DNA of 64,000 nt from an uncultured Clostridia bacterium (GTDB lineage: Bacteria > Bacillota > Clostridia > UMGS1883), in assembly GCA_934476455.1 (NCBI GenBank), contig CAKSNY010000001.1, forward strand, positions 23,673 to 87,672. The letters are read 5' to 3'. Shown in pieces: positions 11,678 to 47,077 of the stretch. Both the position numbers and the translations under genes were made by a program. The notes beneath the pieces are model-generated. The model saw only the letters and a list, made by a program, of their open reading frames with translations. It did no database searches and had not been told where the DNA came from. Each line of letters begins with the position of its first letter. The first letter of the stretch is position 1.

Positions 11678-14600
11678 ATGAGAAAATTTATATGCAGTAT
11701 ATTACTATTTGCAATGCTTTTACCTCAGGCTTCGGTTGCCGTGTATGCAGAAACCGTAAATATCGAAAACGTTGCAATCGGGAAAAAAATACTGACAGAT
11801 GTTCCCAAAAGCGATGCCGAAAGCAATACGGAGGCAATGGTTGACGGAAAAATAATGGTAAACGGAGCCGGTGAAACGCGTTGGTACGTAAGAAAGAACT
11901 GTGCCGACGCATGGTTTAATATTTACCTGGGAAATGAAACAAAGCTGTACTATGCAATGGTGTATTCCGGAGCAAACAGCTCTCCGGCAGGCATAATAAC
12001 GGATTTTAAGCTTCAGTATCGCACGTCAAACGGTTGGGAAGACATTGACGGGGCAGACATTTCCGGAAATGAAAAAATGAAGCTGAAGGTCACCTTTAAG
12101 CAGCCTGTAACAACGGACGCCGTAAGGTTTGTTTCAAAGACAGCTTCAGAGTTCAGAATAAGAGAATTTGAACTGTACGGTGAGGTTGACTCAGTCATAG
12201 CCGCGTCAAAAAATAAAGGAAATGAAGAAGGTTTTGGAATACAATTTCAAAGGGATGTTTCGTTTTTAAGCGCGCTCGGAGTGCTGGACGACAACGCAGT
12301 AATGGATGAAAACGAATTTATTACACGCGGAAGATTTGCAGATATTGCAATGCGTGCATTAGGATACAGAGAGCTTGTATTTACAGAACAGGACGGTATA
12401 TATGAGGATGTTGATACTCAAAACCCCTATTACCAAAGTATAATGAATGCAAGAAAGCTTAATGCAATAAGCGGTGAACAAAAATATTTTTATCCGAACA
12501 AAATTATAAATGAAAACGAAATGTTGAAAATCATTATGTGCCTGATGGGCTACTCCGAATACGCCGAAATGAACGGCGGATATCCGACAGGGTACATAAG
12601 GGCTGCACGTACGGCGGAGGTTGATATCGTTTATGCAAGTGATGCCGACAACAACATAACAAACGGCGAAGCTGTAAGGTTTATTTGCGAAACGTTTGAC
12701 GGATACCCTATGTGTGAGGACGAATACAATAACGGCACAGTAAAAAATGTATCGGACCGTTCGGTATTTGAAAATGTTTATAACGGAAAAAAGGGCGAGG
12801 GTGTTGTAGAAGCAAATGAGGTTACATATTTATACCAAAAAAACTCCCGAGCGGCAAAGGGCGAGGTTATCATAAACGGTGAGCGGTATAAAAACGGCGG
12901 CACGGACGCCGCAGAGCTTTTAGGATTTTACGTCGATTATTATTCTGTAGAAAAGCAGGGAACGGATACGCTTGTATATGTATGCCCCGACAAAAAAAGA
13001 AATTCCGTGCTGACGCTGACATCTGAGGATATAGTGCCCGAAAGCTCAGGCATAAGGCAAATATCCTACCGTGAAAACAATAAAACAAAAGAGGCGAAGC
13101 TGTCAGACGCGCCGTATATTTTAATAAACGGAAAATTTGACGGAAGCTTTACAAAGCAGGATTTGGATTCCGAGACATTGTATATTTTGCTTGTGGATTG
13201 GGATAATGACGATATTTACGATTTTGCAAGCATATATAAATTTGGTACCTTTATTGTCGGCGGTGTTGACGAAAATGCCAAACGAATAAGAAGCCGTGAC
13301 GGTGAAAAAGCTATAGATTTGCTTAACGACGGGGATGAGCTGTACTACACAATAAAAAAATCGGGGCAAAGCGTGCCAATCGGTATTATCAAGGAGGATG
13401 ACGTTGTTTGTGCGGCTCTGTCCTCCGACGGGCGCGCTGCACAAATATTGGTTTCGGGGCGAAAAATAAGCGGCACCGTGGAGGCAACCGACGATGACGG
13501 AAATGTTGTTATCGGCGGAAACGAATACCCGGTATACACGGGCGTTAAAATAAATCTTAACGACAGCGGAACCTTTTATATTGACTCATTCGGAAAGATT
13601 GCAGGTTATGATACAACTTTATCTGCGGAAAAATACGGTTTGGTTCTGAATATTGCGGAGGTGGGAAGTAGTGTAAAGCCATGCGTACAGATTAAACTGT
13701 TAGATGAAAGCGGAGCTGTACAAACATACAATGCGGCAAAGAAATATAAGTTAAACAAGCAGAGAGAGAAATCGGAAAATATTATCGGAAACCCCGCATT
13801 TTTTGACAGCGGAAGCGTGCGAAATGATTTAATTCGCTATAATCTTAACCAAGAAGGCGAGATTAACGAAATAATCACTGTTACAGACAGAAGCACTGAC
13901 GCCGATAAGAGCAGTAACAGAGATATTTTGTCGCTTGACGTTAAGCTTGGAAAGGTAAAGTACAAATCACAGCTTTTATCGGTTTCTGGAAAAAACACCT
14001 ATGCCATCGATATAAACAGACCTATATTTTTTACAACAACCGACAGCGATATCAAGGCTTTGCAAATTGAAGAAAGTGTTTATTCGGGAAAAGCTTCGGA
14101 ATATTTATCGGATTACACAACAATAAACGGAACGGTATCTTTGTATGATATTGACGAATACGGACTTCCGGGGGCAGTTGTGGTTTATGATTATTCGCCT
14201 ACAATGATACCTACAACAAATCAGATTGCGGTTGTAAAAAAAGCGCTTGGCGGAACAAATGAAAACGGCGAAAACACAAAATTTTTGAAGCTGTTTAAAG
14301 AGGGCGCAGAGCTGCAAATTGAATTGCCGCAGTCCGCAAAGGTAATTACATCACTTGCTGCCGCAAAAAGAGAGGGAATGAACACAACATATTTCGGTGA
14401 GTATTACGTTCCCGAGTACGCCGATTATAATGCGGATGATTTAAAAGCGGGAGATATAATTTTGTACTCGCAGCAGAAAGGCAAAATTACGTATTGGCAA
14501 TACGTGTATAAAAACGGTGACACTGTAAGCAGGGTTATTCAGCAGACAGGCGGCGACAGCGGATATTATGCAAATCTTGAAACCATGTTCGTCAGGTTAA

Positions 14601-14824
14601 AGCAGCTGACGGGCAGCGTTATCACGTTTGTTGACGGCGGAGGAACGGAGTATAGCTACCTAAACGATAAAATAAGGGTAACAGTGTACGATTCCATGCA
14701 GAAGGATGTGTATCAGGGAACGATTGATGATATTATAAATGAGGTAAATAACAGCCCGAACATAAATAATTTATTTGTCAGGACGCAGGTAAAGGCTGTT
14801 AAAGACATTGTAATTTATAAATAA
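11678..14824 (+). CDS. Large secreted SLH-domain protein (discoidin-like N-terminal domain, SLH repeats, ~800-aa uncharacterised region)
   Basis: A signal peptide and an F5/8-type-C-like domain (RWYVRKNCADAWFNIYLG ... IREFELYG) come first. SLH-like repeats follow (FLSALGVLDDNAVMD, YQSIMNARKLNAISG). The remainder is paralogous across its full length to the 36697..39366 and 44450..47077 proteins (GYSEYAEMNGGYPTGYIRAA versus GYREYVSVKYGKYPNGYISAA, plus a conserved C-terminus). Confidence 0.6.
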   Translation: MRKFICSILLFAMLLPQASVAVYAETVNIENVAIGKKILTDVPKSDAESNTEAMVDGKIMVNGAGETRWYVRKNCADAWFNIYLGNETKLYYAMVYSGANSSPAGIITDFKLQYRTSNGWEDIDGADISGNEKMKLKVTFKQPVTTDAVRFVSKTASEFRIREFELYGEVDSVIAASKNKGNEEGFGIQFQRDVSFLSALGVLDDNAVMDENEFITRGRFADIAMRALGYRELVFTEQDGIYEDVDTQNPYYQSIMNARKLNAISGEQKYFYPNKIINENEMLKIIMCLMGYSEYAEMNGGYPTGYIRAARTAEVDIVYASDADNNITNGEAVRFICETFDGYPMCEDEYNNGTVKNVSDRSVFENVYNGKKGEGVVEANEVTYLYQKNSRAAKGEVIINGERYKNGGTDAAELLGFYVDYYSVEKQGTDTLVYVCPDKKRNSVLTLTSEDIVPESSGIRQISYRENNKTKEAKLSDAPYILINGKFDGSFTKQDLDSETLYILLVDWDNDDIYDFASIYKFGTFIVGGVDENAKRIRSRDGEKAIDLLNDGDELYYTIKKSGQSVPIGIIKEDDVVCAALSSDGRAAQILVSGRKISGTVEATDDDGNVVIGGNEYPVYTGVKINLNDSGTFYIDSFGKIAGYDTTLSAEKYGLVLNIAEVGSSVKPCVQIKLLDESGAVQTYNAAKKYKLNKQREKSENIIGNPAFFDSGSVRNDLIRYNLNQEGEINEIITVTDRSTDADKSSNRDILSLDVKLGKVKYKSQLLSVSGKNTYAIDINRPIFFTTTDSDIKALQIEESVYSGKASEYLSDYTTINGTVSLYDIDEYGLPGAVVVYDYSPTMIPTTNQIAVVKKALGGTNENGENTKFLKLFKEGAELQIELPQSAKVITSLAAAKREGMNTTYFGEYYVPEYADYNADDLKAGDIILYSQQKGKITYWQYVYKNGDTVSRVIQQTGGDSGYYANLETMFVRLKQLTGSVITFVDGGGTEYSYLNDKIRVTVYDSMQKDVYQGTIDDIINEVNNSPNINNLFVRTQVKAVKDIVIYK

Positions 14825-14843
14825 ATGGATGTGGGGTAGTAAT

Positions 14844-15791
14844 ATGAAAAAAACAACCGCAGCGGCGGTATGCAATTCAAAGAAAAAAAACAACTTTGTT
14901 AACAGGGTGAAAAACCAAAAGTATCTTCTTATTATGCTTGCACCGTGCCTTTTGTATTATATTTTATTCAGGTATATACCGATGTTCGGATTGGTGATTG
15001 CATTTAACAGATACAATTTTGCGGACGGTATATTCGGAAGCCCATGGGTCGGGCTGGATAATTTTTCACAGTTTATATTTGGCCCGTATTTTTGGCGGCT
15101 GATGAAAAATACTTTCCTGACAAGCTTTTATGATCTGTTGTTCGGATTTCCTGCGCCTATAATATTTGCACTTATGCTAAATGAGCTTGCGGGGAGAAAA
15201 TTCAAAAGATTGGTACAAACAGTAAGCTATCTTCCGCATTTTTTGTCGGCTGTCGTTGTTGTCGGTCTTATGAAGCAAATGCTTTCACCGACATCTGGTA
15301 TTGTAAATGCGGCAATATGTGCTTTGGGCGGCGAAAGCATAAACTTTTTTATGGAAAAAGGCTGGTTCAGATTTTTGTATGTTATATCGGGAATTTGGCA
15401 AAATTTCGGCTGGGGAGCAATTATCTATATAGCCGGAATTGCCGCCATTGACCCGGCTCTTTACGAGGCGGCGGAAATTGATGGGGCAAAAAGGTTTAAG
15501 AAAATGATACATATTACTATTCCGGGAATTGCACCGACAATGATTATTTTGTTGATTTTGCGTATGGGTACTTTGCTTGATGTAGGATATGAAAAAGTGC
15601 TGCTGATGTATAACCCGGGAATATATGAAACGGCGGACGTTATTTCCACATATGTATACCGAAACGGTATTCAGGAGGCAAATTACAGTTTTGGTACGGC
15701 TGTCGGGCTTATGAACTCTGTTATCGCAATGATTTTGATAATTGCATCCAACACAATAAGCAAGAGAGTATCGGAAACCAGCTTGTGGTAA
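14844..15791 (+). CDS. Carbohydrate ABC transporter permease (LplB/YesP-like)
   Basis: Multi-TM protein with a typical polysaccharide-ABC permease N-terminus (LLIMLAPCLLYYILFRYIPMFGLVIAFNRYNF) and an EAA-loop region (AAIDPALYEAAEIDGA). Confidence 0.85.
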   Translation: MKKTTAAAVCNSKKKNNFVNRVKNQKYLLIMLAPCLLYYILFRYIPMFGLVIAFNRYNFADGIFGSPWVGLDNFSQFIFGPYFWRLMKNTFLTSFYDLLFGFPAPIIFALMLNELAGRKFKRLVQTVSYLPHFLSAVVVVGLMKQMLSPTSGIVNAAICALGGESINFFMEKGWFRFLYVISGIWQNFGWGAIIYIAGIAAIDPALYEAAEIDGAKRFKKMIHITIPGIAPTMIILLILRMGTLLDVGYEKVLLMYNPGIYETADVISTYVYRNGIQEANYSFGTAVGLMNSVIAMILIIASNTISKRVSETSLW

Positions 15792-15819
15792 ACAGAATTA
15801 AAATATAGGAGGCAATTAT

Positions 15820-16701
15820 ATGCAAAAAAATAAAGAGCTATCAAGCAAGATATTTGATGCTTTTAACATTATAGGTATGTGTGTCATCATATTTATAACG
15901 CTGTACCCGATTATATATGAGCTTGCGATTTCCATGAGTTCGTCTAAGTATGTTCAGGCGAATATGGTTACGTTTCTTCCGAAGGGCATAAATATGGGGG
16001 CGTACAAAAAGGTATTTGCGGACAGAGGCTTTTGGATATCTTATAAAAATACCATTTTTTACACTGTATTCGGAACATTTATAAACATTTTTTTTACCTG
16101 TACATTGGCATTTTGCCTGTCAAGAAAAGAGCTTATAGGCAGAAAGCCCATAACGTTTCTTGTAATGATGACGATGTTTTTTAGCGGCGGTATTATACCG
16201 AATTTCCTTGTGGTAAAGTGGCTTGGGTTATATAACACCATTTGGGCAGTGGTGCTGCCGTATGCAATAAATACATACAATATGGTTATTGTCCGAACTT
16301 TTATGGTTTCAATACCGGAATCGCTTGTAGAAGCTGTAAGAATTGACGGAGGAAATGACTGGAATTTGTACAGCAGGGTAATACTGCCGTTATCAAAACC
16401 CGTTATTGCAACCGTAGGTTTGTTTTATGCCGTAAATCACTGGAACAGCTACTTCACACCTATGCTTTACTTAAACGAAAAATCGCTTCAGCCGCTTCAG
16501 GTAATATTAAAGGAAATGGTCGTAGACCAAAACCTGCAAAGCGTTGCGGCGGATTTGGCTGATATGGAACAATCCACACCAAACAGCGATATGCTTATAG
16601 CGGCTTCAATAATAATTTCACTGCTGCCGATTATATCGGTTTACCCGTTCCTTCAAAAATACTTTGTTAAGGGAATGATGATAGGTTCTGTTAAAGGATA
16701 A
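15820..16701 (+). CDS. Carbohydrate ABC transporter permease (LplC/YesQ-like)
   Basis: Multi-TM protein with the EAA motif EAVRIDGGNDWNLYSRVILPLSKP. Confidence 0.85.
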   Translation: MQKNKELSSKIFDAFNIIGMCVIIFITLYPIIYELAISMSSSKYVQANMVTFLPKGINMGAYKKVFADRGFWISYKNTIFYTVFGTFINIFFTCTLAFCLSRKELIGRKPITFLVMMTMFFSGGIIPNFLVVKWLGLYNTIWAVVLPYAINTYNMVIVRTFMVSIPESLVEAVRIDGGNDWNLYSRVILPLSKPVIATVGLFYAVNHWNSYFTPMLYLNEKSLQPLQVILKEMVVDQNLQSVAADLADMEQSTPNSDMLIAASIIISLLPIISVYPFLQKYFVKGMMIGSVKG

Positions 16702-16730
16702 AAATAAATAAAAGAAAGGAAGAATAATTT

Positions 16731-18308
16731 ATGAAAAAAACATTTAAGAAAGGGGCAGGGCTGGCGCTTGCAGTTTTAATGGCAGTTACAGCCGCAGGAT
16801 GCGGCAAAAAAAACGGCGAAGCGATGAAGCCTGACACCGATGAGCGTCTTGACATTGATTTTATGATTTCGGGACAAGGAACAGACGACAGCCATTTTGT
16901 GCTGAAAAAGACGTTGGATGAAAAATTTAATATTAACGCAAATTTTCTTATAAGTGCGTCAAGCGCGCATATTGATAAGCTTAAAATACTTATAACCTCC
17001 GACAGCCTTCCGGATATTGTGTCGCCGTTTCCGAACGATTTGGCAAAAAACTGCGGACCGCGCGGGGCTTTGGTTCCGCTTTCGGATTACCTTGACAAAA
17101 TGCCCAACTACAAAAAGTATTTAACGTCAAACGCTGAATCCTATGCTTCGCAAATGGCAAATGACGATAAGGTTTATGTTGCGGCACTGTACAGAGAGCA
17201 AAGCGATTGCAGATATGTTCCCATATTGCGGCGCGATTTGTTCGAGGAGCAGGGCATCGAAATTCCCAAAACATATAACGAGCTTTATACGGCACTCAAA
17301 AAAATAAAAGAAAAGCATCCCGAAATCATAGGCCTTGTTAATAAAGTACAAATGGCTTGCCTGTCGGATTACGGTATGAATTTTAATACAAGCAGCGAAA
17401 TGTTTTACAACAAAGAAAATGATAAATGGGAATACGGTCCGGTAAATAAGGGTTTTAAAGAAATGCTGACGTTCTTTAATAACCTTTGGAAAGAAGGCTT
17501 GATGGATCCCGAGTTCTTTACGGCTTCAACAAAGCAATGGGAGGAAAAAATCCTTTCAGGAAAAGCTGTATTTACATTGGGTTGGGTCAATGATTCGTAT
17601 GATTATAAGAAAACATATCTCGAGCTTCACCCGAATTCAAAATTTGACCTGTCTTTGACAGAGCCGATGACAACAGAATCGTATGATGTACCTGTTATAC
17701 AAACATCCGCACAAATTAACGATTACTGCGCGTACGGAATTTCGGCAAAATCTCCTGCGGCGGCACGTTTGTTAAAGGTTGTTGACTTTATGTATTCCGA
17801 CGAAGGCTCTACGCTTGCTCAATACGGTGTAGAGGGGAAGAACTTTACAACAACGGAAGACGGAAAAAAGAAGTATGCAGAGGATATTATGTGGGGATAT
17901 AATCCGAAAGGAACACATAATCCGCTGACTTATTACGGGCTGCGTTCCGACCATTTAATGCGTGTTGTGAAAGCGCAGGATTATGAAAAATATGCCGACA
18001 TTGAAATGGACGCTATCAATATGCGCCAAAAATATTGGGATAATAACTGGGGATACACTTCAAATAACGGTATAAAGCTGACATTTACAGAGGATCAGCA
18101 GGCAGAAATTGATAAAATAAAGAACAATTTAAGCACAATGGTAAATGAAGAAAGCATTAAGTTCATCGTGGGTGAAAGACCGATGTCGGAATTTGATTCC
18201 TTTATTGCACAGCTTGAAAAGCTTAATTACAAAAAGCTTGAGAATATATATTCGGAAGCATTCAAGCAGTATAAGGATCGTATTAAAATGATTAAGCTTT
18301 ATGACTAA
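16731..18308 (+). CDS. Extracellular solute-binding lipoprotein (family 1, LplA-like) of the sugar ABC transporter
   Basis: Signal peptide with lipobox (LMAVTAAGCGKK), ~520 aa, typical size and composition of Firmicute polysaccharide binding proteins. It is adjacent to the two permeases. Confidence 0.8.
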   Translation: MKKTFKKGAGLALAVLMAVTAAGCGKKNGEAMKPDTDERLDIDFMISGQGTDDSHFVLKKTLDEKFNINANFLISASSAHIDKLKILITSDSLPDIVSPFPNDLAKNCGPRGALVPLSDYLDKMPNYKKYLTSNAESYASQMANDDKVYVAALYREQSDCRYVPILRRDLFEEQGIEIPKTYNELYTALKKIKEKHPEIIGLVNKVQMACLSDYGMNFNTSSEMFYNKENDKWEYGPVNKGFKEMLTFFNNLWKEGLMDPEFFTASTKQWEEKILSGKAVFTLGWVNDSYDYKKTYLELHPNSKFDLSLTEPMTTESYDVPVIQTSAQINDYCAYGISAKSPAAARLLKVVDFMYSDEGSTLAQYGVEGKNFTTTEDGKKKYAEDIMWGYNPKGTHNPLTYYGLRSDHLMRVVKAQDYEKYADIEMDAINMRQKYWDNNWGYTSNNGIKLTFTEDQQAEIDKIKNNLSTMVNEESIKFIVGERPMSEFDSFIAQLEKLNYKKLENIYSEAFKQYKDRIKMIKLYD

Positions 18309-20301: not shown

Positions 20302-20314
20302 CGGGGTGAATTAA

Positions 20315-33009: not shown

Positions 33010-33074
33010 ATTAGTGCCGGGCTTAATCAACGGAAAATGACTTTCCGGATATTGACCGAGAGGAGCAACAACAA

Positions 33075-34016
33075 ATGTCATCAATGCAAAAGAAATTATA
33101 CAAAGAATCATTTTGGGAGAGAGCGAAAAAGGATATAAAAAAGAACAAGGTTTTGTATTTGCTTGTATTATTACCGCTTGCATATTATATAGTATTTCAA
33201 TATGTGCCGATGTATGGGATAGTTATAGCATTTAAGCGATATATTCCTGCTCTTGGCATAAATGACAGTCCGTGGGTAGGATTCAGTCACTTCAAAAAGT
33301 TCTTTGAAAGCGTATATTTTTGGCGAATTTTGAAAAATACTTTCCGAATAAGCTTTTTCAGTATTATGTTCGGATTTCCCGCACCGATACTGCTTGCATT
33401 GCTTATAAACGAATTGTCGAATAAGTATTTTGTAAAAAGCGTGCAAACCATAACATACCTTCCGCATTTTGTTTCTATGGTTGTTATATGCGGCATAATA
33501 AAAAGCTTTACCGGAACAAACGGAATAATAACAAACATATTATCGTATTTTACGCATGATACTACTTCTGTGCTCATGCACCCGGAATATTTTACGGCGG
33601 TATATGTGTTATCAAATATATGGCAAGGGATAGGCTGGGGCTCAATAATCTATTTTGCCGCGCTGACAAATATCAATTCGGAATTGTATGAAGCGTGCGA
33701 AATAGACGGCGGCGGCAGACTACGCCAGGCAATCCATGTAACCATCCCGGGAATTTTGCCGACAATCATAATAATGCTTATTATGCGTGTGGGCAGTATA
33801 CTTAATGTAGGCTATGAGAAAATAATTTTGCTTTACAATCCGCTTACATATAAAACGGCGGATGTTATATCAACGTATGTTTACAGAAAAGGTCTTTTGG
33901 AAAACAACTACAGTTACGCAACGGCGGTAGGATTGTTTAATTCTGTTGTAAACGTTATCTTTTTGTGCCTTTGCAATAGGTTTTGCAGAAAGGTTTCAGA
34001 TACAAGCTTATGGTGA
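33075..34016 (+). CDS. Carbohydrate ABC transporter permease (LplB-like)
   Basis: Paralog of the 14844..15791 permease (LLVLLPLAYYIVFQYVPMYGIVIAFKRY, plus an EAA-loop region ACEIDGGGRLRQ). Confidence 0.85.
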   Translation: MSSMQKKLYKESFWERAKKDIKKNKVLYLLVLLPLAYYIVFQYVPMYGIVIAFKRYIPALGINDSPWVGFSHFKKFFESVYFWRILKNTFRISFFSIMFGFPAPILLALLINELSNKYFVKSVQTITYLPHFVSMVVICGIIKSFTGTNGIITNILSYFTHDTTSVLMHPEYFTAVYVLSNIWQGIGWGSIIYFAALTNINSELYEACEIDGGGRLRQAIHVTIPGILPTIIIMLIMRVGSILNVGYEKIILLYNPLTYKTADVISTYVYRKGLLENNYSYATAVGLFNSVVNVIFLCLCNRFCRKVSDTSLW

Positions 34017-34045
34017 CCTACCGATGCTCAGAGGAGAGAGAATAT

Positions 34046-34924
34046 ATGAAAAAATTAACTTTATCGCGCAAGGCGTTCCTTGTTTTTGATGTGACACTGC
34101 TGGCGCTTTTGATTGCAGTGTGCGCATATCCTCTTATCTATGTGCTGTTTGCTTCATTCAGCGACTCGAATTTACTTATCAAGCACAGCGGATTTTTGTT
34201 AAAACCGCTTGGGTTTAACATTATGTCATACAAGGCAGTGTTCAGCAACCCGATGATAGGAAAGGGATATTTAAACACCCTGTTTATACTGGTGGTAGGT
34301 GTAGCTATAAATATTATGATGACATCACTGGCAGCATATTTCCTTTCAAGGAGAAATGTTATGTTTAAAGCTCCCATTATGGCAATAATGCTTTTTACAA
34401 TGTATTTTTCCGGCGGTATTATTCCCAGCTATATTACAATTAAAAATTTGGGCTTGTACGATTCGCTATGGTCGCTTATTCTTCCCGTTTCAATCAGTAC
34501 ATATAACCTTATAATTATGCGTACATCTTTCCAGGGGATACCTGCAAGCCTTGAGGAAGCGGCATATCTTGACGGTGCAGGTCATTTAACAATAATACGT
34601 TATGTTATTTTGCCGCTTTCAAAGGCGATAATTGCCGTAATGGTATTATATTACGGTGTGGAATATTGGAACTCGTGGTTTAACGCAAGTATATATCTAA
34701 ACGACAGAAGCAAATATCCTTTGCAGCTTGTGTTAAGAGAAATATTACTGCAAAATGATATTTCAAATATGGCGGGCGGAGCTGAGGCAGGCGATGTGTA
34801 CAGTGTTGCCGAAAGTATTAAATATGCAGTAATCGTTGTTGCAACCTTTCCTATTTTATGTTTATATCCGTATTTGCAAAAATACTTTGTAAAGGGTGTA
34901 ATGATAGGCTCTTTGAAAGGATGA
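34046..34924 (+). CDS. Carbohydrate ABC transporter permease (LplC-like)
   Basis: Start trimmed to the ATG after GAGGAGAG. EAA motif EAAYLDGAGHLTIIRYVILPLSKA. Paralog of the 15820..16701 permease. Confidence 0.85.
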   Translation: MKKLTLSRKAFLVFDVTLLALLIAVCAYPLIYVLFASFSDSNLLIKHSGFLLKPLGFNIMSYKAVFSNPMIGKGYLNTLFILVVGVAINIMMTSLAAYFLSRRNVMFKAPIMAIMLFTMYFSGGIIPSYITIKNLGLYDSLWSLILPVSISTYNLIIMRTSFQGIPASLEEAAYLDGAGHLTIIRYVILPLSKAIIAVMVLYYGVEYWNSWFNASIYLNDRSKYPLQLVLREILLQNDISNMAGGAEAGDVYSVAESIKYAVIVVATFPILCLYPYLQKYFVKGVMIGSLKG

Positions 34925-34929
34925 TTTAT

Positions 34930-36675
34930 ATGTTGGCAAGTTGCTATTGCACTATAAGGAAATACATTCTGAAGAAAACGATATGCGGTGCGGTTGCTTT
35001 GCTTTTAGGAATTGCTTCCGTTATATCAAATGAAATTACCGCTGCAGCAGCGGTTTTGGATGCAGAATGGTCTGCTGATTATACTGATATGAAGCTGATA
35101 ATAAATGTGAATACATCCGCTCCATACATACAACAGATAACTGCAGTAATGTATCCTGCCGATATTACGGTGCCGACGTTTAATGACTATTCACGTGTCT
35201 GTGAAATTACGACAAATAAAAGCGGTAACAAAATAATTTTCGGAATTTATGACGACTTAAACGCTCCTGACGGGAAATACAAAATTGAACTGCGCGGGAA
35301 CGGATATATGGCAGAGCAATGTAAAAAAGACCTTGAGGTATATGTAATCTGTCCAAACAGAATAAAAGGTGCGGGAGGTCTTTTGGAAAGAGCAAATACG
35401 GAAAATTCATCGAACGGAATAAACGCGCTTATCGGAGAATTAAAAGATGGCCTTTTATTAACCGAGGAATCGGATAATGAAAGAAAAGAAATACGGGCAC
35501 AGGTGTTTGTCAATATCAGAAGCGACGACTTTAACGGCGCGTTTAAAAACCTCGATAATGTTAGGGAAGCCTGGCTCATTTCGGATATTTTGACGCATTT
35601 TAATGAAAGCTCGGCTTCAAAAGATTCTATAAAAGCAAAGATTGAACAGAATGCAGCCTTGCTGGATACAGATATTAACGACGCAGAGTACGATAAGTAT
35701 TCTGATGCGGTTTATTCAAGTATTTATACATTCAGAAATAATTATTGCAATAAAGGCATAAGATCATACACATTGTTAAAAAAATCTATAAAAGAGTTTT
35801 TGGCTCTTGCAATAATAAATGATTCCGATTTAGAGAACGGAAATTTAAAAAGCAACATAGAAACCTATTATAAAGACTTAGGCATACCCGAAGAATTATA
35901 TGCGCGTTATTCAAAGCTTGACAAATCAAACAAAGAGCTTGTTTTAAAACAGCTTTATCATAAAGACTTTGCAGATGGTACGGTTTTGCAAAAAGTATTC
36001 GGTGATGCAGTGGAGTATGTAGAAAAACAAGGTAATAAAAGTGATAATTCGGATAGCGGAAAATCATGGTCAGGCGGCGGTGGCGGTAGCTACAGCATTG
36101 CTTCGCCGAAGAATAACGAAATAAACACTGATGAATTTAGGTTTAATGATTGTCCTGAAACGCATTGGGCGTACAGTTATATAAAAAAACTGTGTAATAA
36201 AAATATTTTGTCGGGCTATGGGGACGGCAGCTTTTTACCGGAAAAAAATGTGAGTCGGGAAGAATTTGTGAAAATGATTATTTCCGCTGTCGGATTGTAC
36301 GACAAAGGTGCGGAATGTGAGTTTGCGGATGTTTCGAAAAGCAGCTGGAGCTACAGATATATTGCTTCTGCGCGTAATGCAGAGATCATTAACGGAATGA
36401 ATGATAATATATTCGGGGCGCAAAGCTTTGTAACACGTGAGGATGCCGCCGTTATCGCAAGTAGAGTTTTGAAAAGATTCGGTATAGATGCAGACGGTAT
36501 CGGAATTGTGTTTTCAGACGAAAATCTGATAAAGGATTACGCAAAGGAATGTGTTAATTCTCTCTCTGCGATGGGAATAATAACCGGTTATGAAGACGGA
36601 GGCTTTTATCCTCAGGGGAATCTTACCCGTGCACAGGCAGCAAAGATAATTTGTGAGATATGCCGCTATGTATAA
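34930..36675 (+). CDS. Cell-surface protein with N-terminal uncharacterised domain, helical region, Gly-rich linker and 3x C-terminal SLH domains
   Basis: Signal/TM segment ICGAVALLLGIASVI. WSGGGGGSYS linker. The SLH motifs are WAYSYIKKLCNKNILSGYGDGSF, WSYRYIASARNAEIINGM and YAKECVNSLSAMGIITGYEDGGF. The C-terminal half has the same architecture as the 9330..11672 protein. Confidence 0.7.
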   Translation: MLASCYCTIRKYILKKTICGAVALLLGIASVISNEITAAAAVLDAEWSADYTDMKLIINVNTSAPYIQQITAVMYPADITVPTFNDYSRVCEITTNKSGNKIIFGIYDDLNAPDGKYKIELRGNGYMAEQCKKDLEVYVICPNRIKGAGGLLERANTENSSNGINALIGELKDGLLLTEESDNERKEIRAQVFVNIRSDDFNGAFKNLDNVREAWLISDILTHFNESSASKDSIKAKIEQNAALLDTDINDAEYDKYSDAVYSSIYTFRNNYCNKGIRSYTLLKKSIKEFLALAIINDSDLENGNLKSNIETYYKDLGIPEELYARYSKLDKSNKELVLKQLYHKDFADGTVLQKVFGDAVEYVEKQGNKSDNSDSGKSWSGGGGGSYSIASPKNNEINTDEFRFNDCPETHWAYSYIKKLCNKNILSGYGDGSFLPEKNVSREEFVKMIISAVGLYDKGAECEFADVSKSSWSYRYIASARNAEIINGMNDNIFGAQSFVTREDAAVIASRVLKRFGIDADGIGIVFSDENLIKDYAKECVNSLSAMGIITGYEDGGFYPQGNLTRAQAAKIICEICRYV

Positions 36676-36696: not shown

Positions 36697-39366
36697 TTGA
36701 GAAAGATATATATTTGTTTTGCCGTAGTGGCGGTGTCGGTTTTACTGACGCTTTGCAATATTACGGGATATGCAAGCAGCACCGATACAACATATGACGA
36801 AAGCCTTTCTGCGCTTAACGCCATGGGGGTTTTAAACCTTCCGGATTCGGAAGGGGATAATCAAAATATTACACGTGCACAGTTTGCCGCAAATATTTTT
36901 AACATTGCGGGATATGAAAAGGTAAATCATCCGGCGGCGGATATACCGTTTTCGGATGTAAGTGTCGATTATGTGTATAAAGACGAGATATGCACACTTT
37001 ATGATTTGAAAATTATAAACGGTACGGAAAACGGATTCTTTTCACCCGAAGAACCTATAACATATGTACAGGCAGTTAAGCTTGCGGCAGACATACTTGG
37101 GTACAGAGAATATGTAAGCGTAAAATACGGAAAGTATCCAAACGGGTATATATCAGCCGCCTATGATTTAAAGCTGACAGACGGGATAAAATCTCCTGTA
37201 ACAGATATACCGTTAAACTTAAAGGATGCAGTTCGTTTTTTGTATAATACCGCGTGTTCTTTCGTTTCGGAGGGAGAGGAATATAAAACGAACGGAGGTA
37301 TAACATACGCAAAAGACAACAGAATGCTCATAACAAAGGGACATAATATTTATTACGGTGAAGGAGTTTTAAAAAGTAACGGGGTATGTGCGCTTACCGG
37401 TGTGACGCTGAAAAAGGGTCATACAGAAATAAACAATGAGGAATATATGATAGGAAAATGTGACGTTTTAAGCCTTCTCGGAAGCAAGGTAAAATATTTT
37501 TACAGAGAGGAAAAAGGCGGAAACGTTCTTTTGTGGGCGTCGGAGCATAAAAGCAACAAAACGCTGACAATAAACAGCCGTGACCTTATAACAGACGATA
37601 CCGATTACAGCGCGGAAAAAATAATATATTATGACAAAAACAAAAGAACAGCTGCCGAAATATCCCCGTTTGCAAGCATTGTTTATAACAATAAGCTGAG
37701 AAATATCACATGTGTTATAAAACCCGTTTCGGGTACTGTGAAACTTACGGATTCTGATGGGGACGGAAGATGGGAGACTGTGACCGTAAACGAATTTAAA
37801 AATATTTTTATTACAGGGATTTTGCCGAATGAAAAGGTAATTGCAGATAAATTCGGAAATACGGTTTGCCTTAATGATTATAAGAACGTAACGATAGTTA
37901 AAGAAGGCAGAAAGATAAACATAGAGGAAGTTCCGACGCGGGTTATTGCGTCATACACAGAGGATGAAGAAAAAGAAAGCATATATGTATATATATGCGA
38001 TGAAGGGGAGCTTGGCACTCTTGAAGCTGTAGGTGAGGAAAACGGAAAAAATATATACACATTCTCCGGAAAAGAAAAGAGAATTTCATACAGTTATTCG
38101 AAGATTATATCTGATGGAATTTATCCTGCGTGTGAACTGAAAATAGGGGAAAATTATAAATATTATACGGATATTTCGGGCGATATTGCCGAACTTGAAA
38201 ATCGCAACGACGGGAAAATCAGATACGCATATCTGATTGACGCGGCAAAAGATAATAAGGCAACGGCAAAAAGCTATGCTGCACTTGTAAAGCTTTTGCT
38301 TGACAATGGAGATATAATTATTGCAAAGGCAGAAAAAAACATAAAGATAAACAATGTTTCCGGTTTTACGGGTGAAGATCTACTGAATTGCCCATTTATT
38401 TCGGAAGGCGGGAAAATAAAACAGCAGGTTGTAAAAATTGCGTTTGGGCACGATGATAAGGTACTGGAGATACAGTTTGCGGAAGACAATACAAATTCTG
38501 AATATGGGTATAATTCAAATGTTTTTTCACTTGATTTCAGCTGTAATCAGATAGGTGAGCCAAGTTATTATTACGGTTCGAAGATCGACGCTTTTGCCGT
38601 TGACGGAAATGCAAAATATTTTGTTGCCGATGGCACAATCTGTTTTGTAAAATATTCTGATTCTCTGCAAGATGAGCCATATGCCGTAACAAGTGCATTA
38701 AATTTCGCGGACAAGGGTAGATATAATGTTGAGCTGTATGATTGCAACGAAAAAATGGAAATAGCTGCAATGAGTACGGTCAGAACACTTGGCGGCGTTG
38801 AAAACGCAATATTTGTTGTAGACAACGTGCGTTATGTTTTGGGTGAAAACGGAGAGAATTTAAAACAAGTAAGCGGCTACAAAAATGGAAATTATTTAAC
38901 GTATACAGAACTTTACGAAGATATAATTCCCGATGGACTGCAACGCGGAGATGCAATTAAGATAGGGATGTACAACGGAAAAATAAGCAGCTTTAAACAG
39001 ATTTGCAGCCTGAGACAGTATCCGGAAGCCTTTATAGAAGCGGACTCTGTCAGAGAGGATGGATTGCTTTTCGGACAATTATACTCTGTGGGAATTAACA
39101 ATATTGTTACCGTAGTTCCTGATTCCGAAAAGGCGGTATACGGAAAACTTGTATCGTCATCATTGGCTGAAATATGGGCAAATCCGGTGTATATTACGAT
39201 ATATAATTGTGCGGACGACACAATTTCAAAGGGAGAACTGAGAGATATTTTGCCCGCCGGCGGACCTGATAATAACGGCGATTTGCCCGCAGACGGCAGA
39301 AAAATAATGGCATTGCTTAATAAAACAAAAGGTTATGCGCGTGATATAGTTGTAGTGTATTATTAA
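36697..39366 (+). CDS. Large secreted SLH-domain protein (N-terminal SLH-like repeats + ~700-aa uncharacterised region); paralog of 44450..47077 and 11678..14824
   Basis: TTG start after GGGGGAGGG. A signal peptide is present. The N-terminal SLH-like repeats are LSALNAMGVLNLPDSEG and YKDEICTLYDLKIINGTENGFF. The conserved C-terminus ends RDIVVVYY. Confidence 0.6.
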   Translation: MRKIYICFAVVAVSVLLTLCNITGYASSTDTTYDESLSALNAMGVLNLPDSEGDNQNITRAQFAANIFNIAGYEKVNHPAADIPFSDVSVDYVYKDEICTLYDLKIINGTENGFFSPEEPITYVQAVKLAADILGYREYVSVKYGKYPNGYISAAYDLKLTDGIKSPVTDIPLNLKDAVRFLYNTACSFVSEGEEYKTNGGITYAKDNRMLITKGHNIYYGEGVLKSNGVCALTGVTLKKGHTEINNEEYMIGKCDVLSLLGSKVKYFYREEKGGNVLLWASEHKSNKTLTINSRDLITDDTDYSAEKIIYYDKNKRTAAEISPFASIVYNNKLRNITCVIKPVSGTVKLTDSDGDGRWETVTVNEFKNIFITGILPNEKVIADKFGNTVCLNDYKNVTIVKEGRKINIEEVPTRVIASYTEDEEKESIYVYICDEGELGTLEAVGEENGKNIYTFSGKEKRISYSYSKIISDGIYPACELKIGENYKYYTDISGDIAELENRNDGKIRYAYLIDAAKDNKATAKSYAALVKLLLDNGDIIIAKAEKNIKINNVSGFTGEDLLNCPFISEGGKIKQQVVKIAFGHDDKVLEIQFAEDNTNSEYGYNSNVFSLDFSCNQIGEPSYYYGSKIDAFAVDGNAKYFVADGTICFVKYSDSLQDEPYAVTSALNFADKGRYNVELYDCNEKMEIAAMSTVRTLGGVENAIFVVDNVRYVLGENGENLKQVSGYKNGNYLTYTELYEDIIPDGLQRGDAIKIGMYNGKISSFKQICSLRQYPEAFIEADSVREDGLLFGQLYSVGINNIVTVVPDSEKAVYGKLVSSSLAEIWANPVYITIYNCADDTISKGELRDILPAGGPDNNGDLPADGRKIMALLNKTKGYARDIVVVYY
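36742..37703 (+). repeat. Copy A of a ~962-bp near-identical direct repeat (copy B at 44507..45468)
   Basis: Nucleotide comparison gives a constant offset of 7765 bp across the repeat, with only two substitutions seen on spot checks. It encodes the identical N-terminal ~320 aa of the paralogs, and the six-frame track shows identical antisense ORFs at 37076..37312 and 44841..45077. Confidence 0.85.
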
Positions 39367-39383
39367 GAAAGCAGGTAACAAAT

Positions 39384-42077: not shown

Positions 42078-42119
42078 ATGGACGATAATTATAATTTAAC
42101 CATGTTGATAAAGTGAGGA

Positions 42120-44453
42120 TTGCACCTAATGAAGAGAACGAAAATTAAAGAATTTTTTTCAAGCGACTTTTTCGGAACGATAATGGTTACGTTTTTTTCA
42201 ATATTTGCTATTCCAATGTTATCCGGTATAATTGCGCTTCATTTTGACGAAAACGCAATAAAGAAAGAGCTTGCGGAATCTGATAAAATAATGGTTACAA
42301 CCGTGCAGCAGCATATTGAAAGGCAGCTTGCAACAATTACATCAGCGGCGACCTCTGTTTCACACGATGCAAAAATAAGAGAAATTTCCGAAACGACAGG
42401 AAATGACCCGTACGAAACGGAAGTTTTAAGCAAAACCAATCAGCTGGCAAAATCATTATCCAAATATTTGGAGGTAGAAAAAAGCATAGACAATGTATAT
42501 GTTGTTTTTGGAAAAAAGGGAATTGTCGTTTCGCCTACAATGGTTGAAACAAACGAAAGCTTTTTTGAAAAATACTATAGAGAATCCGATTTTTTATTAA
42601 GTAAGTGGAATAGCATTTTAAACAGAAAATCTTACGGACAGTATTCAATAGTTTATGAAAATGAAAAAAAATATATTGATTTTTATTTTAGCAACTCCCT
42701 GATTTCAAAAAGAAATAATTCGGGTGAAACAATAGTTGTCAGAATTTCGGAAGCAGAATTCGGTAATTATGTATCCAAATTTCATTCCTTTACGGATAAG
42801 CAAATTTGTGTAATTGATAAAAACAACGATGTTGTACTGAATTATGGTGACCGCATATTAAAAAATTACAATTATGATAGCTACAACTCGATTATGAAAG
42901 CAGAAAAAACGGATGATTTTACGTATACAATGGCAAAATCGGGAAGCAACAACTGGAAGTATGTGTTGTCGACAAGCGATAAATATATTCAAAAAAAGGT
43001 ATATTACAATAGAATGTTGGTAATTGTAAATGTTCTGATTTATTTAATTGCTGCCATTATAGTTGTAAGTATATATATGGTAAAAAACTATATTCCGTTA
43101 AGAAGGATAATCAGTAAAGCAGACGGATGCAGTGCAAACAGTTATGATGCTCTTGAAAAAGTTGTATCGGAATATAATTGGTACAAGACATATGCACTGC
43201 GGTATAAAAGGCAGTATAACAAGGTGCAGACAGAGCAGTTTTTCTACAATATTGTTTCGTTTAACAGAAATCCGAAGGAAATTAAAAAGATAGCAGAACA
43301 TCTCAAAATAAGTCTTGTGTCGGATATGTTTACAGTCATACTGATAGACATATGTGATTATGAAAAATTATTTGAAGATGACGAAATTGACGAGGCTGAG
43401 CGCGTGGCGAGTGCGGAGTTAATAGTCAGAAATATTTTTGGTGAGCTTCTTTCTTCCATAGGCGTAGCATATTTCCTTTTGAAAGATGACAAGCAAATTT
43501 GTATACTGAATTTAAAAAATGAGGAAAACTGGAAACAGCGCGTGGCGGAAATTTTGCATAACGGTAAGGATGTAATCCAAGAACATTTTGAAATACCAGT
43601 GACAGTTTGCATAAGCAGATTGTCAGAAGGCTTGGAAAACCTGCGTAATGCCTACGTTGAAACTGTTGAAACCAATATGAAGCATTGGCTTGCCGTTGAT
43701 AACGAGATTGTGTTCTGCGAGCCTGTATCTGCAATTCATAATAAAACATATTACGATTGTTCAGATGCTGAAAAAATTCTTTCCTTTATAAAAAAAGGAG
43801 AAAAGGCACGCGGTATTGAACAAATGAAAAATACAATCAGGCGCTGTGCGAGTGACTCTGACTACGGAGAAGGAAAGGCAAAGATGTTTTCCGTGAAATT
43901 GATTGACGGTATTTATGATTATATATCCGAAGAAATAGAACCCGACAATAGGTTTTATGCAATTGTAAATCGGGTTTTATTGTTTAAATCATATGATGGT
44001 TATATTGCAGCGTTAGAGGAAATCATCAGATATGCGTGCAATATTCAGAATTTGAACAGTGTAGGCAGTATCTCAAAAACCGAGAAAGTATCGGCTGAAA
44101 ATATGGTTGAAACTATAAAGTCGTATATTTCCGCAGAGTATACTGACAGTACACTGAGCTTAACACGTATTGGTGAATATATGGGTATTACACCGTATTA
44201 TGTTTCACATACCTTCAAAAAGGTAACAGGTGAAAATCTTTCAGATTATATAAGTCGCTTCCGTATTGAGAAGTCAAAGGATGTTATATGTAACAATGAT
44301 AGAATTTCATCTGCACGTCTTGCGGAAATGGTCGGTTTTGGCAGCGAACGTACTTTTATACGGATGTTCAATAAATTCGAGAATGTTTCGGTAGGGCAAT
44401 ATAAGGCAATGCTTAGGAAAGATGATTATATTGAGAAAGGAAAGCAACAATGA
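42120..44453 (+). CDS. Transmembrane sensor AraC-family regulator (TM1 - extracytoplasmic sensor domain - TM2 - cytoplasmic domain - AraC HTH)
   Basis: Two hydrophobic helices (FGTIMVTFFSIFAIPMLSGIIAL and MLVIVNVLIYLIAAIIVVSIYMV) flank a ~260-aa extracytoplasmic segment. The C-terminal AraC HTH is LTRIGEYMGITPYYVSHTFKK ... GFGSERTFIRMFNKFENVSVGQYK. Confidence 0.8.
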   Translation: MHLMKRTKIKEFFSSDFFGTIMVTFFSIFAIPMLSGIIALHFDENAIKKELAESDKIMVTTVQQHIERQLATITSAATSVSHDAKIREISETTGNDPYETEVLSKTNQLAKSLSKYLEVEKSIDNVYVVFGKKGIVVSPTMVETNESFFEKYYRESDFLLSKWNSILNRKSYGQYSIVYENEKKYIDFYFSNSLISKRNNSGETIVVRISEAEFGNYVSKFHSFTDKQICVIDKNNDVVLNYGDRILKNYNYDSYNSIMKAEKTDDFTYTMAKSGSNNWKYVLSTSDKYIQKKVYYNRMLVIVNVLIYLIAAIIVVSIYMVKNYIPLRRIISKADGCSANSYDALEKVVSEYNWYKTYALRYKRQYNKVQTEQFFYNIVSFNRNPKEIKKIAEHLKISLVSDMFTVILIDICDYEKLFEDDEIDEAERVASAELIVRNIFGELLSSIGVAYFLLKDDKQICILNLKNEENWKQRVAEILHNGKDVIQEHFEIPVTVCISRLSEGLENLRNAYVETVETNMKHWLAVDNEIVFCEPVSAIHNKTYYDCSDAEKILSFIKKGEKARGIEQMKNTIRRCASDSDYGEGKAKMFSVKLIDGIYDYISEEIEPDNRFYAIVNRVLLFKSYDGYIAALEEIIRYACNIQNLNSVGSISKTEKVSAENMVETIKSYISAEYTDSTLSLTRIGEYMGITPYYVSHTFKKVTGENLSDYISRFRIEKSKDVICNNDRISSARLAEMVGFGSERTFIRMFNKFENVSVGQYKAMLRKDDYIEKGKQQ

Positions 44454-47077
44454 TAATCTCTAAAAAACAAAGACATCATTTATACGCTGCGGTAACGGTT
44501 ATTTTATTACTGACGCTTTGCAATATTACGGGATATGCAAGCAGCACCGATACAACATATGACGAAAGCCTTTCTGCGCTTAACGCCATGGGGGTTTTAA
44601 ACCTTCCGGATTCGGAAGGGGATAATCAAAATATTACACGTGCACAGTTTGCCGCAAATATTTTTAACATTGCGGGATATGAAAAGGTAAATCATCCGGC
44701 GGCGGATATACCGTTTTCGGATGTAAGTGTCGATTATGTGTATAAAGACGAGATATGCACACTTTATGATTTGAAAATTATAAACGGTACGGAAAACGGA
44801 TTCTTTTCACCCGAAGAACCTATAACATATGTACAGGCAGTTAAGCTTGCGGCAGACATACTTGGGTACAGAGAATATGTAAGCGTAAAATACGGAAAGT
44901 ATCCAAACGGGTATATATCAGCCGCCTATGATTTAAAGCTGACAGACGGGATAAAATCTCCTGTAACAGATATACCGTTAAACTTAAAGGATGCAGTTCG
45001 TTTTTTGTATAATACCGCGTGTTCTTTCGTTTCGGAGGGAGAGGAATATAAAACGAACGGAGGTATAACATACGCAAAAGACAACAGAATGCTCATAACA
45101 AAGGGACATAATATTTATTACGGTGAAGGAGTTTTAAAAAGTAACGGGGTATGTGCGCTTACCGGTGTGACGCTGAAAAAGGGTCATACAGAAATAAACA
45201 ATGAGGAATATATGATAGGAAAATGTGACGTTTTAAGCCTTCTCGGAAGCAAGGTAAAATATTTTTACAGAGAGGAAAAAGGCGGAAACGTTCTTTTGTG
45301 GGCGTCGGAGCATAAAAGCAACAAAACGCTGACAATAAACAGCCGTGACCTTATAACAGACGATACCGATTACAGCGCGGAAAAAATAATATATTATGAC
45401 AAAAACAAAAGAACGGCTGCCGAAATATCTCCGTTTGCAAGCATTGTTTATAACAATAAGCTGAGAAACAGTTCTCAAATAAAACCAAAGACAGGAAATA
45501 TAAAGCTTGTTGATAACAACAATGACGGAAGCTACGACACGGTAGTTGTTACTGAATTTAAAAATATGTTTGTTGTCAGCGTTTCGCAAAAAGGAAATTT
45601 CATATCAGACAGTTATAACCATAGCTTAAATCTTGATGATTACAATAATATATATATTTATGAAAATGGCGTACAGATATACCTTGATGATATAGGCAGT
45701 AAACGAATAATTTCATATGTAACAGATGCTGAAAAGGAAAATTTGTATATTTACGTATGCAAAAAGGGGGTGGAGGCAACCTTAGATGCTATCGGTGAAA
45801 AAAGTGGAAAAACAGTATACGAATTTAACGGAAAAGAACTTTATATGTCAGAGGAATATTTAAGTATCGGCGAAAATAATTACAACACAGTATTGCCAAA
45901 GGTGGGTGTAAGGTACTTGTACTATACAGATATTGCCGGAGATATTGCGGAAATAACGGAGGTATCCGGTAATATTTTGGAATATGCTTATTTGATAAAC
46001 GCTGCAAAGGATTCAAGACCGCTTGCAAAAGACAATTCGGCAGCGCTAAGGCTGCTTATGACAGACGGTAATATTATAACAGCATATACCGCAAAAGATA
46101 TTATTATTGACGGCGTAGGAAAAAAGAACGGCAGTGATATTCTTTCGGACAACAGGCTAAACACAGCAGCAGGCTTTAACGAACAGGTCATTAAGGTGCG
46201 CTTTACAAGCAGCGGAGAGTTAAAGGAAATCTGTTTTCCGGAAAATTGTAAATCGGAATACGGGTACGATGTAAAAAATTTTACAACTGATTTTGACGGT
46301 ACTGCAACATTTACGACAAATCGTCAGATTTACACATTTAACTATAAGTACAGCATATATCCGAACACAATTATTTTTGCAAGGTATGATAATATAAATG
46401 TAGATGAACCATACGCTGTTATTGATTACAATGCTCTCAAAGGAATAAAAAGGGCAAGGTTATACGATTGTGATAAAACCCTTTCGCCTTCGGTTGTTGC
46501 GGTTGAGCTGAACGGAGAAGTATACAGCGAAAATATGATTTTGGTTGACAATATAAAATACGAACAACAACAAGACGGTAATTTTTATAAAAAAATATAT
46601 GGTTACAGTTACGGAAAACCGTACGACTGTGTTGAGTATTACGAGGGTGTTATACCTAACGACTTAAAGCGCGGAGATGTTGTACGTGCTGCGCTTTTGG
46701 AACGAAGGGTTGTAAAAATTGAAAAAATAGTAAGCTTAAGTGAACCTCCCGCTCCGCGGCTGGACAATCTTGCAAGCAGCAATTTTTCAATAATTGTCGG
46801 GGAACTGTATGCTATAAGCGAACATGGAATAGTTACATTAAACCCCATAAATACGGCAAGCAGATTGACAACGTCTGCATATTCGTCTCAAACGAGCGGT
46901 CAACTGCAGATTTATGATACGGTAAATGATATAATACGCCCCGCTTTGTTTACAGAAATTATGCCGATTACACTGCCCTATTCGGACGGAACGCTTTGTC
47001 AAAACAACGGCAGTTTATGGGTTGTATTGTATAGAAAATATGAACATTTGAGAGATGCCATTGCGGTTTATTATTAA
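44450..47077 (+). CDS. Large secreted SLH-domain protein; paralog of 36697..39366 (N-terminal 320 aa identical), with a divergent C-terminal region
   Basis: See the repeat feature. The C-terminus ends RDAIAVYY, as in the paralogs. Confidence 0.6.
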   Translation: MIISKKQRHHLYAAVTVILLLTLCNITGYASSTDTTYDESLSALNAMGVLNLPDSEGDNQNITRAQFAANIFNIAGYEKVNHPAADIPFSDVSVDYVYKDEICTLYDLKIINGTENGFFSPEEPITYVQAVKLAADILGYREYVSVKYGKYPNGYISAAYDLKLTDGIKSPVTDIPLNLKDAVRFLYNTACSFVSEGEEYKTNGGITYAKDNRMLITKGHNIYYGEGVLKSNGVCALTGVTLKKGHTEINNEEYMIGKCDVLSLLGSKVKYFYREEKGGNVLLWASEHKSNKTLTINSRDLITDDTDYSAEKIIYYDKNKRTAAEISPFASIVYNNKLRNSSQIKPKTGNIKLVDNNNDGSYDTVVVTEFKNMFVVSVSQKGNFISDSYNHSLNLDDYNNIYIYENGVQIYLDDIGSKRIISYVTDAEKENLYIYVCKKGVEATLDAIGEKSGKTVYEFNGKELYMSEEYLSIGENNYNTVLPKVGVRYLYYTDIAGDIAEITEVSGNILEYAYLINAAKDSRPLAKDNSAALRLLMTDGNIITAYTAKDIIIDGVGKKNGSDILSDNRLNTAAGFNEQVIKVRFTSSGELKEICFPENCKSEYGYDVKNFTTDFDGTATFTTNRQIYTFNYKYSIYPNTIIFARYDNINVDEPYAVIDYNALKGIKRARLYDCDKTLSPSVVAVELNGEVYSENMILVDNIKYEQQQDGNFYKKIYGYSYGKPYDCVEYYEGVIPNDLKRGDVVRAALLERRVVKIEKIVSLSEPPAPRLDNLASSNFSIIVGELYAISEHGIVTLNPINTASRLTTSAYSSQTSGQLQIYDTVNDIIRPALFTEIMPITLPYSDGTLCQNNGSLWVVLYRKYEHLRDAIAVYY
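44507..45468 (+). repeat. Copy B of the ~962-bp direct repeat
   Basis: See copy A. Confidence 0.85.

Follow-up and report, generated by a model that had tools for sequence, protein, structure and literature searches.

Clostridia are among the main degraders of fibre in the gut and rumen, but how they capture glycans at the cell surface is ill defined beside the Sus-like systems of Bacteroidota. In those systems the surface glycan-binding proteins (SGBPs) of the SusE/SusF type are non-catalytic, N-terminally anchored chains of small beta domains whose distal end varies; they are encoded beside a transporter and serve many substrates. The anchor of SusE/F is a lipid in the outer membrane and their distal domains are beta-sandwiches resembling carbohydrate-binding modules (CBMs), with demonstrated binding. 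The gut pectin specialist Monoglobus pectinilyticus reportedly possesses carbohydrate-active enzymes (CAZymes) bearing surface-layer homology (SLH) domains. In Paenibacillus JDR-2, the SLH-anchored multimodular glycosidases Xyn10A1, Bgl16A1 and Amy13A2 are found with ATP-binding cassette (ABC) importers, and N-terminal SLH triplets occur in some of these surface glycosidases and glucanases (PMC4765114). An N-terminal SLH region followed by calcium-stabilised, beads-on-a-string domains is also the canonical layout of the surface-layer (S-layer) proteins Sap, EA1 and SbsB (PMC12175726). The present analysis concerns three secreted SLH proteins, P1, P2 and P3, encoded in a 64,000-nucleotide stretch of an uncultured Clostridia bacterium (assembly GCA_934476455.1, contig CAKSNY010000001.1, positions 23,673 to 87,672; hereafter the window). 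They are read here, tentatively and with a probability of roughly 0.45, as a non-catalytic, wall-anchored stalk of Gram-positive polysaccharide utilization loci (PULs) that holds glycan at the surface for SLH-bearing enzymes and an ABC importer.

An earlier note, made on the letters of this DNA, had described the three genes as full-length paralogs. All three open reading frames (ORFs) are present (Table 1), with lengths of 1051, 889 and 875 codons for P1, P2 and P3 (P1 frame at 11669/11678-14824), and plausible ribosome-binding sites (GGGGGA, GGGGGAGGG and AAGGAAAG) lie 7-10 nt 5' of ATG 11678, TTG 36697 and ATG 44450, respectively. The P3 start overlaps the stop of an AraC-type gene by 4 nt. 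P2 and P3 are 57% identical across 890 aa, that is, over their full length; P1 shares 24% identity with P2 across 727 aa (E 7e-34) and 27% with P3 across 421 aa (E 7e-29). When a hidden Markov model (HMM) of the non-SLH region was run against the six-frame translation of the window, exactly these three genes were recovered. A hydrophobic, signal-peptide-like segment begins each product, and the comparisons support a paralogous family of secreted SLH proteins. With sizes of 875-1048 aa the proteins are large, and the word giant used for them overstates the case. The conserved blocks GYSEY/GYREY and GYIRAA/GYISAA are found as described, but the claimed C-terminal block is loose (DIVIYK in P1, DIVVVYY in P2 and DAIAVYY in P3).

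The N-terminal assignment of the SLH region was upheld by several lines of evidence. Pfam SLH (PF00395) matches one repeat each in P2 and P3 at 34.9 bits (cut-off 20.8). P1 has no Pfam SLH match at E<=0.1; the region is nevertheless homologous to that of P2 by alignment. In the structural model of P2, residues 33-186 superpose on the crystal structures of the SpaA and Sap SLH trimers (Foldseek probability 1.0, target-normalised TM score 0.69-0.85, 160-171 columns). A family profile built from 80 members found Sap and SpaA SLH chains in the PDB at E 1e-14 to 1e-21, and all its PDB matches (Sap, SpaA, the OmpM-type chains 8bys and 8bym, and Deinococcus radiodurans SlpA) run through the SLH part only. 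As judged from the alignment, the trimer is a family-specific variant in which the arginine of the TRAE motif is generally kept in the first repeat only. That repeat retains (V/I)TRAEF, its Arg being present in 144 of 147 members; the second reads ITYxQAxK, with Y, L or F in place of the Arg; the third begins GGYPxGY, and here the Arg occurs in 55 of 147 members but in neither P2 nor P3. One intact ligand groove may suffice for the predicted wall binding. No csaB gene was seen within the window. The N-terminal position had been regarded as the reverse of the usual SLH placement; it is in fact the standard layout of Firmicute S-layer proteins (PMC12175726), and is shared by the JDR-2 glycosidases (PMC4765114).

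Beyond the SLH region, and an F5/8 type C (discoidin) domain that precedes it in P1 (aa 54-155, Pfam 42.7 bits), nothing in Pfam or NCBIfam matches P1, P2 or P3 at E<=0.1, and a phmmer search against all PDB chains gave no match. A first model of P2, full length and built from 14 sequences, had a predicted local distance difference test (pLDDT) score of 76. Its structural matches were mostly to the SLH domain or spurious ones to DDB1 propellers (TM 0.08). A second model, covering aa 187-889 with the SLH region removed and 80 homologs, is confident (mean pLDDT 91.6, predicted TM score (pTM) 0.66) and all-beta. By a reading of its strand pattern, the modelled region comprises roughly eight domains of 60-115 residues that appear to be barrels resembling the oligonucleotide/oligosaccharide-binding (OB) fold. 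Signals of internal repetition among the eight are weak, with an hhalign probability of at most 61%, and an origin by tandem repetition is not claimed. No Foldseek match of the second model exceeded a TM score of 0.12, and no glycoside hydrolase (GH), polysaccharide lyase (PL) or CBM was found among the 60 matches listed. The earlier note saw no known enzyme or binding fold in the part of each protein that follows its SLH-like repeats. This holds, at sequence and fold level, for the core of 685-703 aa that follows the SLH region, for which the profile and structure searches returned no GH, PL or CBM family; in P1 the discoidin/CBM32-like domain had been overlooked.

The second barrel carries a calcium-loop-like motif (DSDGDGRWE, aa 352-360 of P2), and a DxDxDGxxD loop occurs at one aligned position of this domain in 100 of 147 members. 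Such loops are typical of the calcium sites of dockerins and FG-GAP repeats, and the loop of domain 2 probably binds calcium.

The family is large. An exhaustive hmmsearch over 1.84 billion cluster representatives returned 8,896 matches at E<=1e-30, some of them to SLH alone. The 150 matches listed all scored 455-1053 bits; in nearly all of them the alignment ran end to end and the length was 840-1060 aa. The clusters (50% identity) of full-length members found thus number at least 150, and there are probably thousands. An initial impression of rarity, from a word-indexed homolog search that found 8-14 clusters, was shown by the exhaustive search to be an artefact of sensitivity. With P2 as query no relative was found in GTDB representative genomes, and a metagenome scan with P1 found a single 1.7-kb fragment. 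The TrkA protein encoded in the window reaches no more than 69% identity to proteins from metagenome-assembled genomes of uncultured gut and rumen Clostridia. None of 10 clusters checked carries a name, and the few distant relatives that do are called only S-layer or S-layer-homology domain-containing protein. The suggestion of an undescribed protein class is no more than plausible. Pfam, NCBIfam and PDB have no entry for the region, and the only names are generic SLH ones; against it stand the size of the family and the faint similarity of its central domains to S-layer-like proteins. Some members have N-terminal additions, namely F5/8 type C (P1, P0193 and P0238) or Golvesin_C (P0162). In P0231 and P0257 the family module is preceded by an unrecognised N-terminal region of about 650 aa and a canonical SLH triplet; no assignment was reached for the N-terminal 650 aa of P0231, which is not called a glycosidase here. 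It was also observed that P0154 (2594 aa) and P0235 (2313 aa) carry the SLH-like region and the first domains three times in tandem, followed by several copies of the distal half, a layout which suggests that the proximal and distal halves are separable modules.

The genomic setting of the family is consistent. The window is a run of plus-strand carbohydrate genes, with one divergent paralog per transporter cluster and no convincing intergenic terminators between its genes. The P1 locus reads GH28-SLH, AraC, C-terminally SLH-anchored (C-SLH) protein, P1, two permeases and solute-binding protein (SBP), and is followed by GH2, GHL6, DUF4432 and others. The P2/P3 order is SBP, two permeases, C-SLH protein, P2, a protein with aBig_2 and resemblance to rhamnogalacturonan I (RGI) lyase, AraC and P3, with GH31, GH88, isomerases and GH36 thereafter. 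Pfam thus bears out the sugar ABC transporters and AraC regulators that had been placed beside the three genes. Thirteen family loci were examined, the three in the window and ten from other assemblies (L001-L004, L006, L008, L010, L012, L013 and L094). Sugar ABC components, AraC regulators or CAZymes are present in every one. The CAZymes of the ten from other assemblies include PL8, heparinase II/III-like, Pel9A-like beta-helix, GH16, GH10-CBM9 and GH28/GH106/GH94 proteins. P1 and P0004, although mutually only 27% identical, lie in the same series of genes (C-SLH protein, family member, permease, permease, SBP), and the P1-type importer order (permease, permease, SBP) is also found in L001.

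A second protein recurs in these loci. In 10 of the 13 the directly upstream gene encodes a C-SLH protein, with a gap of at most 68 nt or an overlap, and seven of these ten upstream proteins are 550-643 aa long. Six aligned partners (that of P2 and those in L002, L004, L008, L012 and L013) all begin with an Ig-like part, continue with a helical region and a Gly-rich linker, and have three canonical SLH repeats; the 566-aa SLH protein of L094 was placed with them by size and Pfam SLH match only. No Pfam or PDB relative of the N-terminal part was found, and the P2-type partners are a second recurrent, uncharacterised family. Further features of this family are a signal peptide, repeated Y..L(S/D)...K motifs in the helical region and the poly-Gly nature of the linker. 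The layout of P0231 and P0257 resembles a fusion of a C-SLH partner with a family member, which is at most suggestive support for the adjacency of the two.

Conservation within the family declines from the wall-proximal to the distal end, from 1.7-1.95 bits per column in the SLH region and domains 1 and 2 to 1.28 bits in domain 8. Between P2 and P3, identity from domain 1 to domain 8 is 99, 69, 33, 43, 36, 29, 29 and 23%. Over a tract of 962 nt the two genes differ by 2 mismatches, with 908 nt perfectly identical; they diverge on either side of it, in the codons of the signal peptide and in the two-thirds of the genes that follow. In the sister strain L005 the corresponding tract (2293-3254 and 10058-11019) is perfect and the same four strain-specific single-nucleotide polymorphisms occur in both copies, which shows that gene conversion is ongoing and limited to the anchor-proximal part. 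The nucleotide comparison thus indicates concerted evolution of P2 and P3 by gene conversion in this part.

These features, together with an aromatic content above that of S-layer-like relatives, can be assembled into the stalk model favoured above. The variant SLH trimer would hold each secreted, acidic protein in the wall, from where some 700 residues, as roughly eight small OB-like beta-barrels, would project. The genes would be co-transcribed with those of sugar ABC importers, AraC regulators and SLH-anchored enzymes. The variable distal domains would hold the target glycan at the surface, the wall-proximal part being generic, and neighbouring SLH enzymes would then set oligosaccharides free near the importer. 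A further task of the stalk may be to position the co-encoded C-SLH partner. Glycan capture is suggested by gene context, and the partner interaction is likewise a prediction.

Several points weigh against the stalk model. Neither Pfam nor the fold search recognises a CBM in the conserved core, and barrels of the OB-like kind have diverse ligands, among them protein, metal and nucleic acid. The link to carbohydrate loci was counted over 13 loci only, several of them from similar gut or rumen metagenomes and without a background control set of SLH proteins. Among 12 members compared (23-29% identity) the branches of the family gave no signal of following the substrate type of the PUL, a result that a generic structural role would explain as well as binding would. 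An HMM of the beta region alone weakly matches (about 35 bits, E ~1e-7 per million sequences) long collinear stretches of Cys-free, Lys/Glu/Asp-rich SLH proteins, so that the PUL-linked family may be a branch of a wider S-layer-like superfamily. Finally, the family resembles Sap and EA1 of B. anthracis, SbsB of G. stearothermophilus and SpaA of P. alvei in its signal peptide, N-terminal SLH trimer, 600-700 aa of beads-on-a-string beta domains, acidic pI, probable calcium site and conserved N-terminus with a variable remainder (layout in PMC12175726).

The last two points are the substance of the strongest alternative, which is nonetheless clearly less probable than the stalk: that the proteins are S-layer-type structural paralogs, variants of the S-layer subunit of the cell that are specific to a sugar locus and co-induced with it. 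Their beta chains would self-assemble to build or remodel lattice patches displaying SLH enzymes, with no glycan binding by themselves. The frequency of the calcium-type loop would fit this, as would the identical 5' kilobase and divergent remainder of P2 and P3, which recall S-layer gene families. One of the weak matches is a Gottschalkia purinilytica S-layer domain-containing protein. Its gene, however, stands alone away from sugar genes. Those of the family are found in the middle of sugar operons, unlike a solitary gene with strong expression, and a genome has several diverged copies, each linked to its own transporter. The members also contain 2-16 cysteines and 9-12.6% aromatic residues, against 7-9% in the Cys-free S-layer-like relatives. 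Unlike S-layer proteins they have a variant SLH trimer, and their beta chain has neither sequence nor global fold similarity to solved S-layer assembly regions (TM 0.08 to Sap 9g93). Should they prove to be S-layer variants switched on with the sugar locus, the architecture of the envelope would be connected with the acquisition of nutrients in a new way.

The recurrent partner invites a further explanation, namely a protein-docking adaptor whose chain binds the C-SLH partner or enzymes, or the SBP lipoprotein of the importer, in a wall-spanning complex without glycan contact. The tight spacing of the partner gene, the canonical SLH triplet directly ahead of the family module in the fusion-like proteins and the high conservation of the wall-proximal part are all in keeping with such a role, and the pTM value suggests a defined rigid body. 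The partners, however, are very different outside SLH, ranging from 550 to 2204 aa, no conserved interface is evident, and three of the 13 loci have no partner; the adaptor is rated less likely still than S-layer paralogs. It seems very unlikely that the family is an enzyme acting on glycans, whether hydrolase, lyase or esterase, whose fold CAZy does not yet contain. The case for an enzyme would rest on the obligatory position among CAZyme genes and on the invariant acidic and aromatic residues D356, D492, Y510, Y681 and D752, but the conserved acids belong to loops or Gly-Asp turns of the kind usual at structural sites, no enzyme family was matched by sequence or fold, and a string of small barrels has neither a large domain for catalysis nor a fold that would form a cleft. 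The SLH profile matches, and all-beta proteins ending in VYY, bring to mind porins such as OmpM and Deinococcus SlpA, which are tethered in the outer membrane by SLH; this reading was rejected on fold as hardly credible, since the model has no coiled-coil stalk with a large transmembrane beta-barrel.

Table 1 Features of the three SLH proteins, their partners and neighbouring genes (window positions, or positions in the named locus)
Feature	Position	Strand	Basis or remarks
P1, 1048 aa	11678..14824	+	ORF and translation; alignment to P2 and P3; family HMM 486 bits
P1 signal peptide			about aa 1-25
P1 F5/8 type C domain	11837-12142		aa 54-155
P1 SLH-like trimer	12245-12706		about aa 190-343
P1 all-beta chain			about aa 346-1048
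P2, 889 aa	36697..39366	+	signal peptide
P2 SLH trimer	36793-37254		aa 33-186
P2 small beta-barrel domains, about eight (predicted)	37255-39363		aa 187-889
P3, 875 aa	44450..47077	+	architecture as in P2; ORF, Pfam, alignment, family HMM
Gene-conversion tract, P2 copy	36742..37703	+	mature N-terminus, SLH trimer, domain 1, part of domain 2
Gene-conversion tract, P3 copy	44507..45468	+
P1 upstream partner, 833-aa secreted protein, three C-terminal SLH repeats	9171..11672	+	Pfam SLH 96 bits from aa 649
P2 upstream partner, 605-aa ORF	34858..36675	+	Pfam SLH 118.6 bits; P2-type partner
P2-type partner, L002	8056-9987
P2-type partner, L004	8180-9973
P2-type partner, L008	8286-9995
P2-type partner, L012	8352-10004
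P2-type partner, L013	8229-9980
P2-type partner, L094	8233-9933
AraC-family regulator of P1 locus	7886..9265	+	Pfam HTH_18, HTH_AraC
ABC sugar importer directly after P1 (two permeases, 525-aa SBP)	14829..18308	+	Pfam BPD_transp_1 twice, SBP_bac_1
ABC sugar importer upstream of partner-P2 pair (SBP, two permeases)	31447..34924	+	Pfam
AraC-type regulator, 777 aa, HTH_18 and GGDEF_2-like	42120..44453	+	Pfam; translationally coupled to P3

The stop of the P1 partner gene lies 5 nt ahead of the P1 start, and the importer upstream of the P2 partner is paralogous to the one linked to P1. Both partner genes have longest ORFs that reach back 67-95 nt into the gene before them (9171-9265 and 34858-34920), and the real starts are probably internal to them. 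That of the 9171 ORF is probably further downstream because of its overlap with the AraC gene; that of the 34858 ORF is placed near 34921 because the L005 orthologue was called at 584 aa, 21 codons shorter.

Other genes of the window also have counterparts worth recording. An 881-aa protein (28805-31450) without any Pfam or NCBIfam match is 45% identical, full length, to one in L010 (1672-4335); both lie just upstream of the SBP gene in syntenic loci and are a further conserved, unassigned component of this locus type. The 897-aa protein at 39384-42077 has aBig_2, weak RGI-lyase beta-sheet and CbhB-like segments and no recognised catalytic domain; its counterpart in L010 (8719-11451) shares 28% identity over 937 aa, and P2 and its relative P0003 are each followed directly by one of these two genes. 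Three proteins, at 2355-5033 (-), 9171-11672 (+) and 18301-20301 (+), have in common an unassigned N-terminal domain of about 260-370 aa. The first and second are 48% identical in it, and the third is 24-30% identical to them. Among them SLH repeats occur only in 9171-11672; in 18301-20301 there are Big_7 and a weak signal of F5/8 type C. The GH28 pectinase-like protein at 5183-7843 has a pair of SLH repeats in its interior and Golvesin_C at its C-terminus, the domain found N-terminally in P0162.

A large family that lacks Pfam, NCBIfam and PDB coverage and is tied to importers and a recurrent SLH partner is a candidate for a non-enzymatic surface component of Gram-positive PULs, and may also serve as a genomic marker of them. 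One parallel is with the SLH-anchored glycosidases of JDR-2, and also of Caldicellulosiruptor and Thermoanaerobacterium, which are likewise displayed at the surface by SLH domains and encoded in operons with an ABC oligosaccharide importer and a regulator. Those enzymes, however, carry recognisable GH and CBM modules, and the conserved core of the present family has neither. With the SGBPs the family shares the design of a non-catalytic, N-terminally anchored beta chain with a variable distal end, encoded beside a transporter; it differs in being held by SLH domains in a monoderm wall, in having no homology to them and in that its glycan binding is a prediction from context. A bolder and rather doubtful extension is that the C-SLH partner and the N-terminally SLH-anchored chain of OB-like barrels together form a generic, substrate-independent core module of PULs in those Clostridia of the gut and rumen that bear SLH proteins. 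The module would be the monoderm equivalent of the SusC/SusD-SGBP logic, and the barrel chain a new carbohydrate-binding architecture; if true, the pair could mark Gram-positive PULs in metagenomes. Within the Clostridia of the gut, a likeness is seen to M. pectinilyticus, which is said to display pectin-active proteins by SLH domains, as would the present window with its GH28-SLH protein, RGI-lyase-like protein and GH88.

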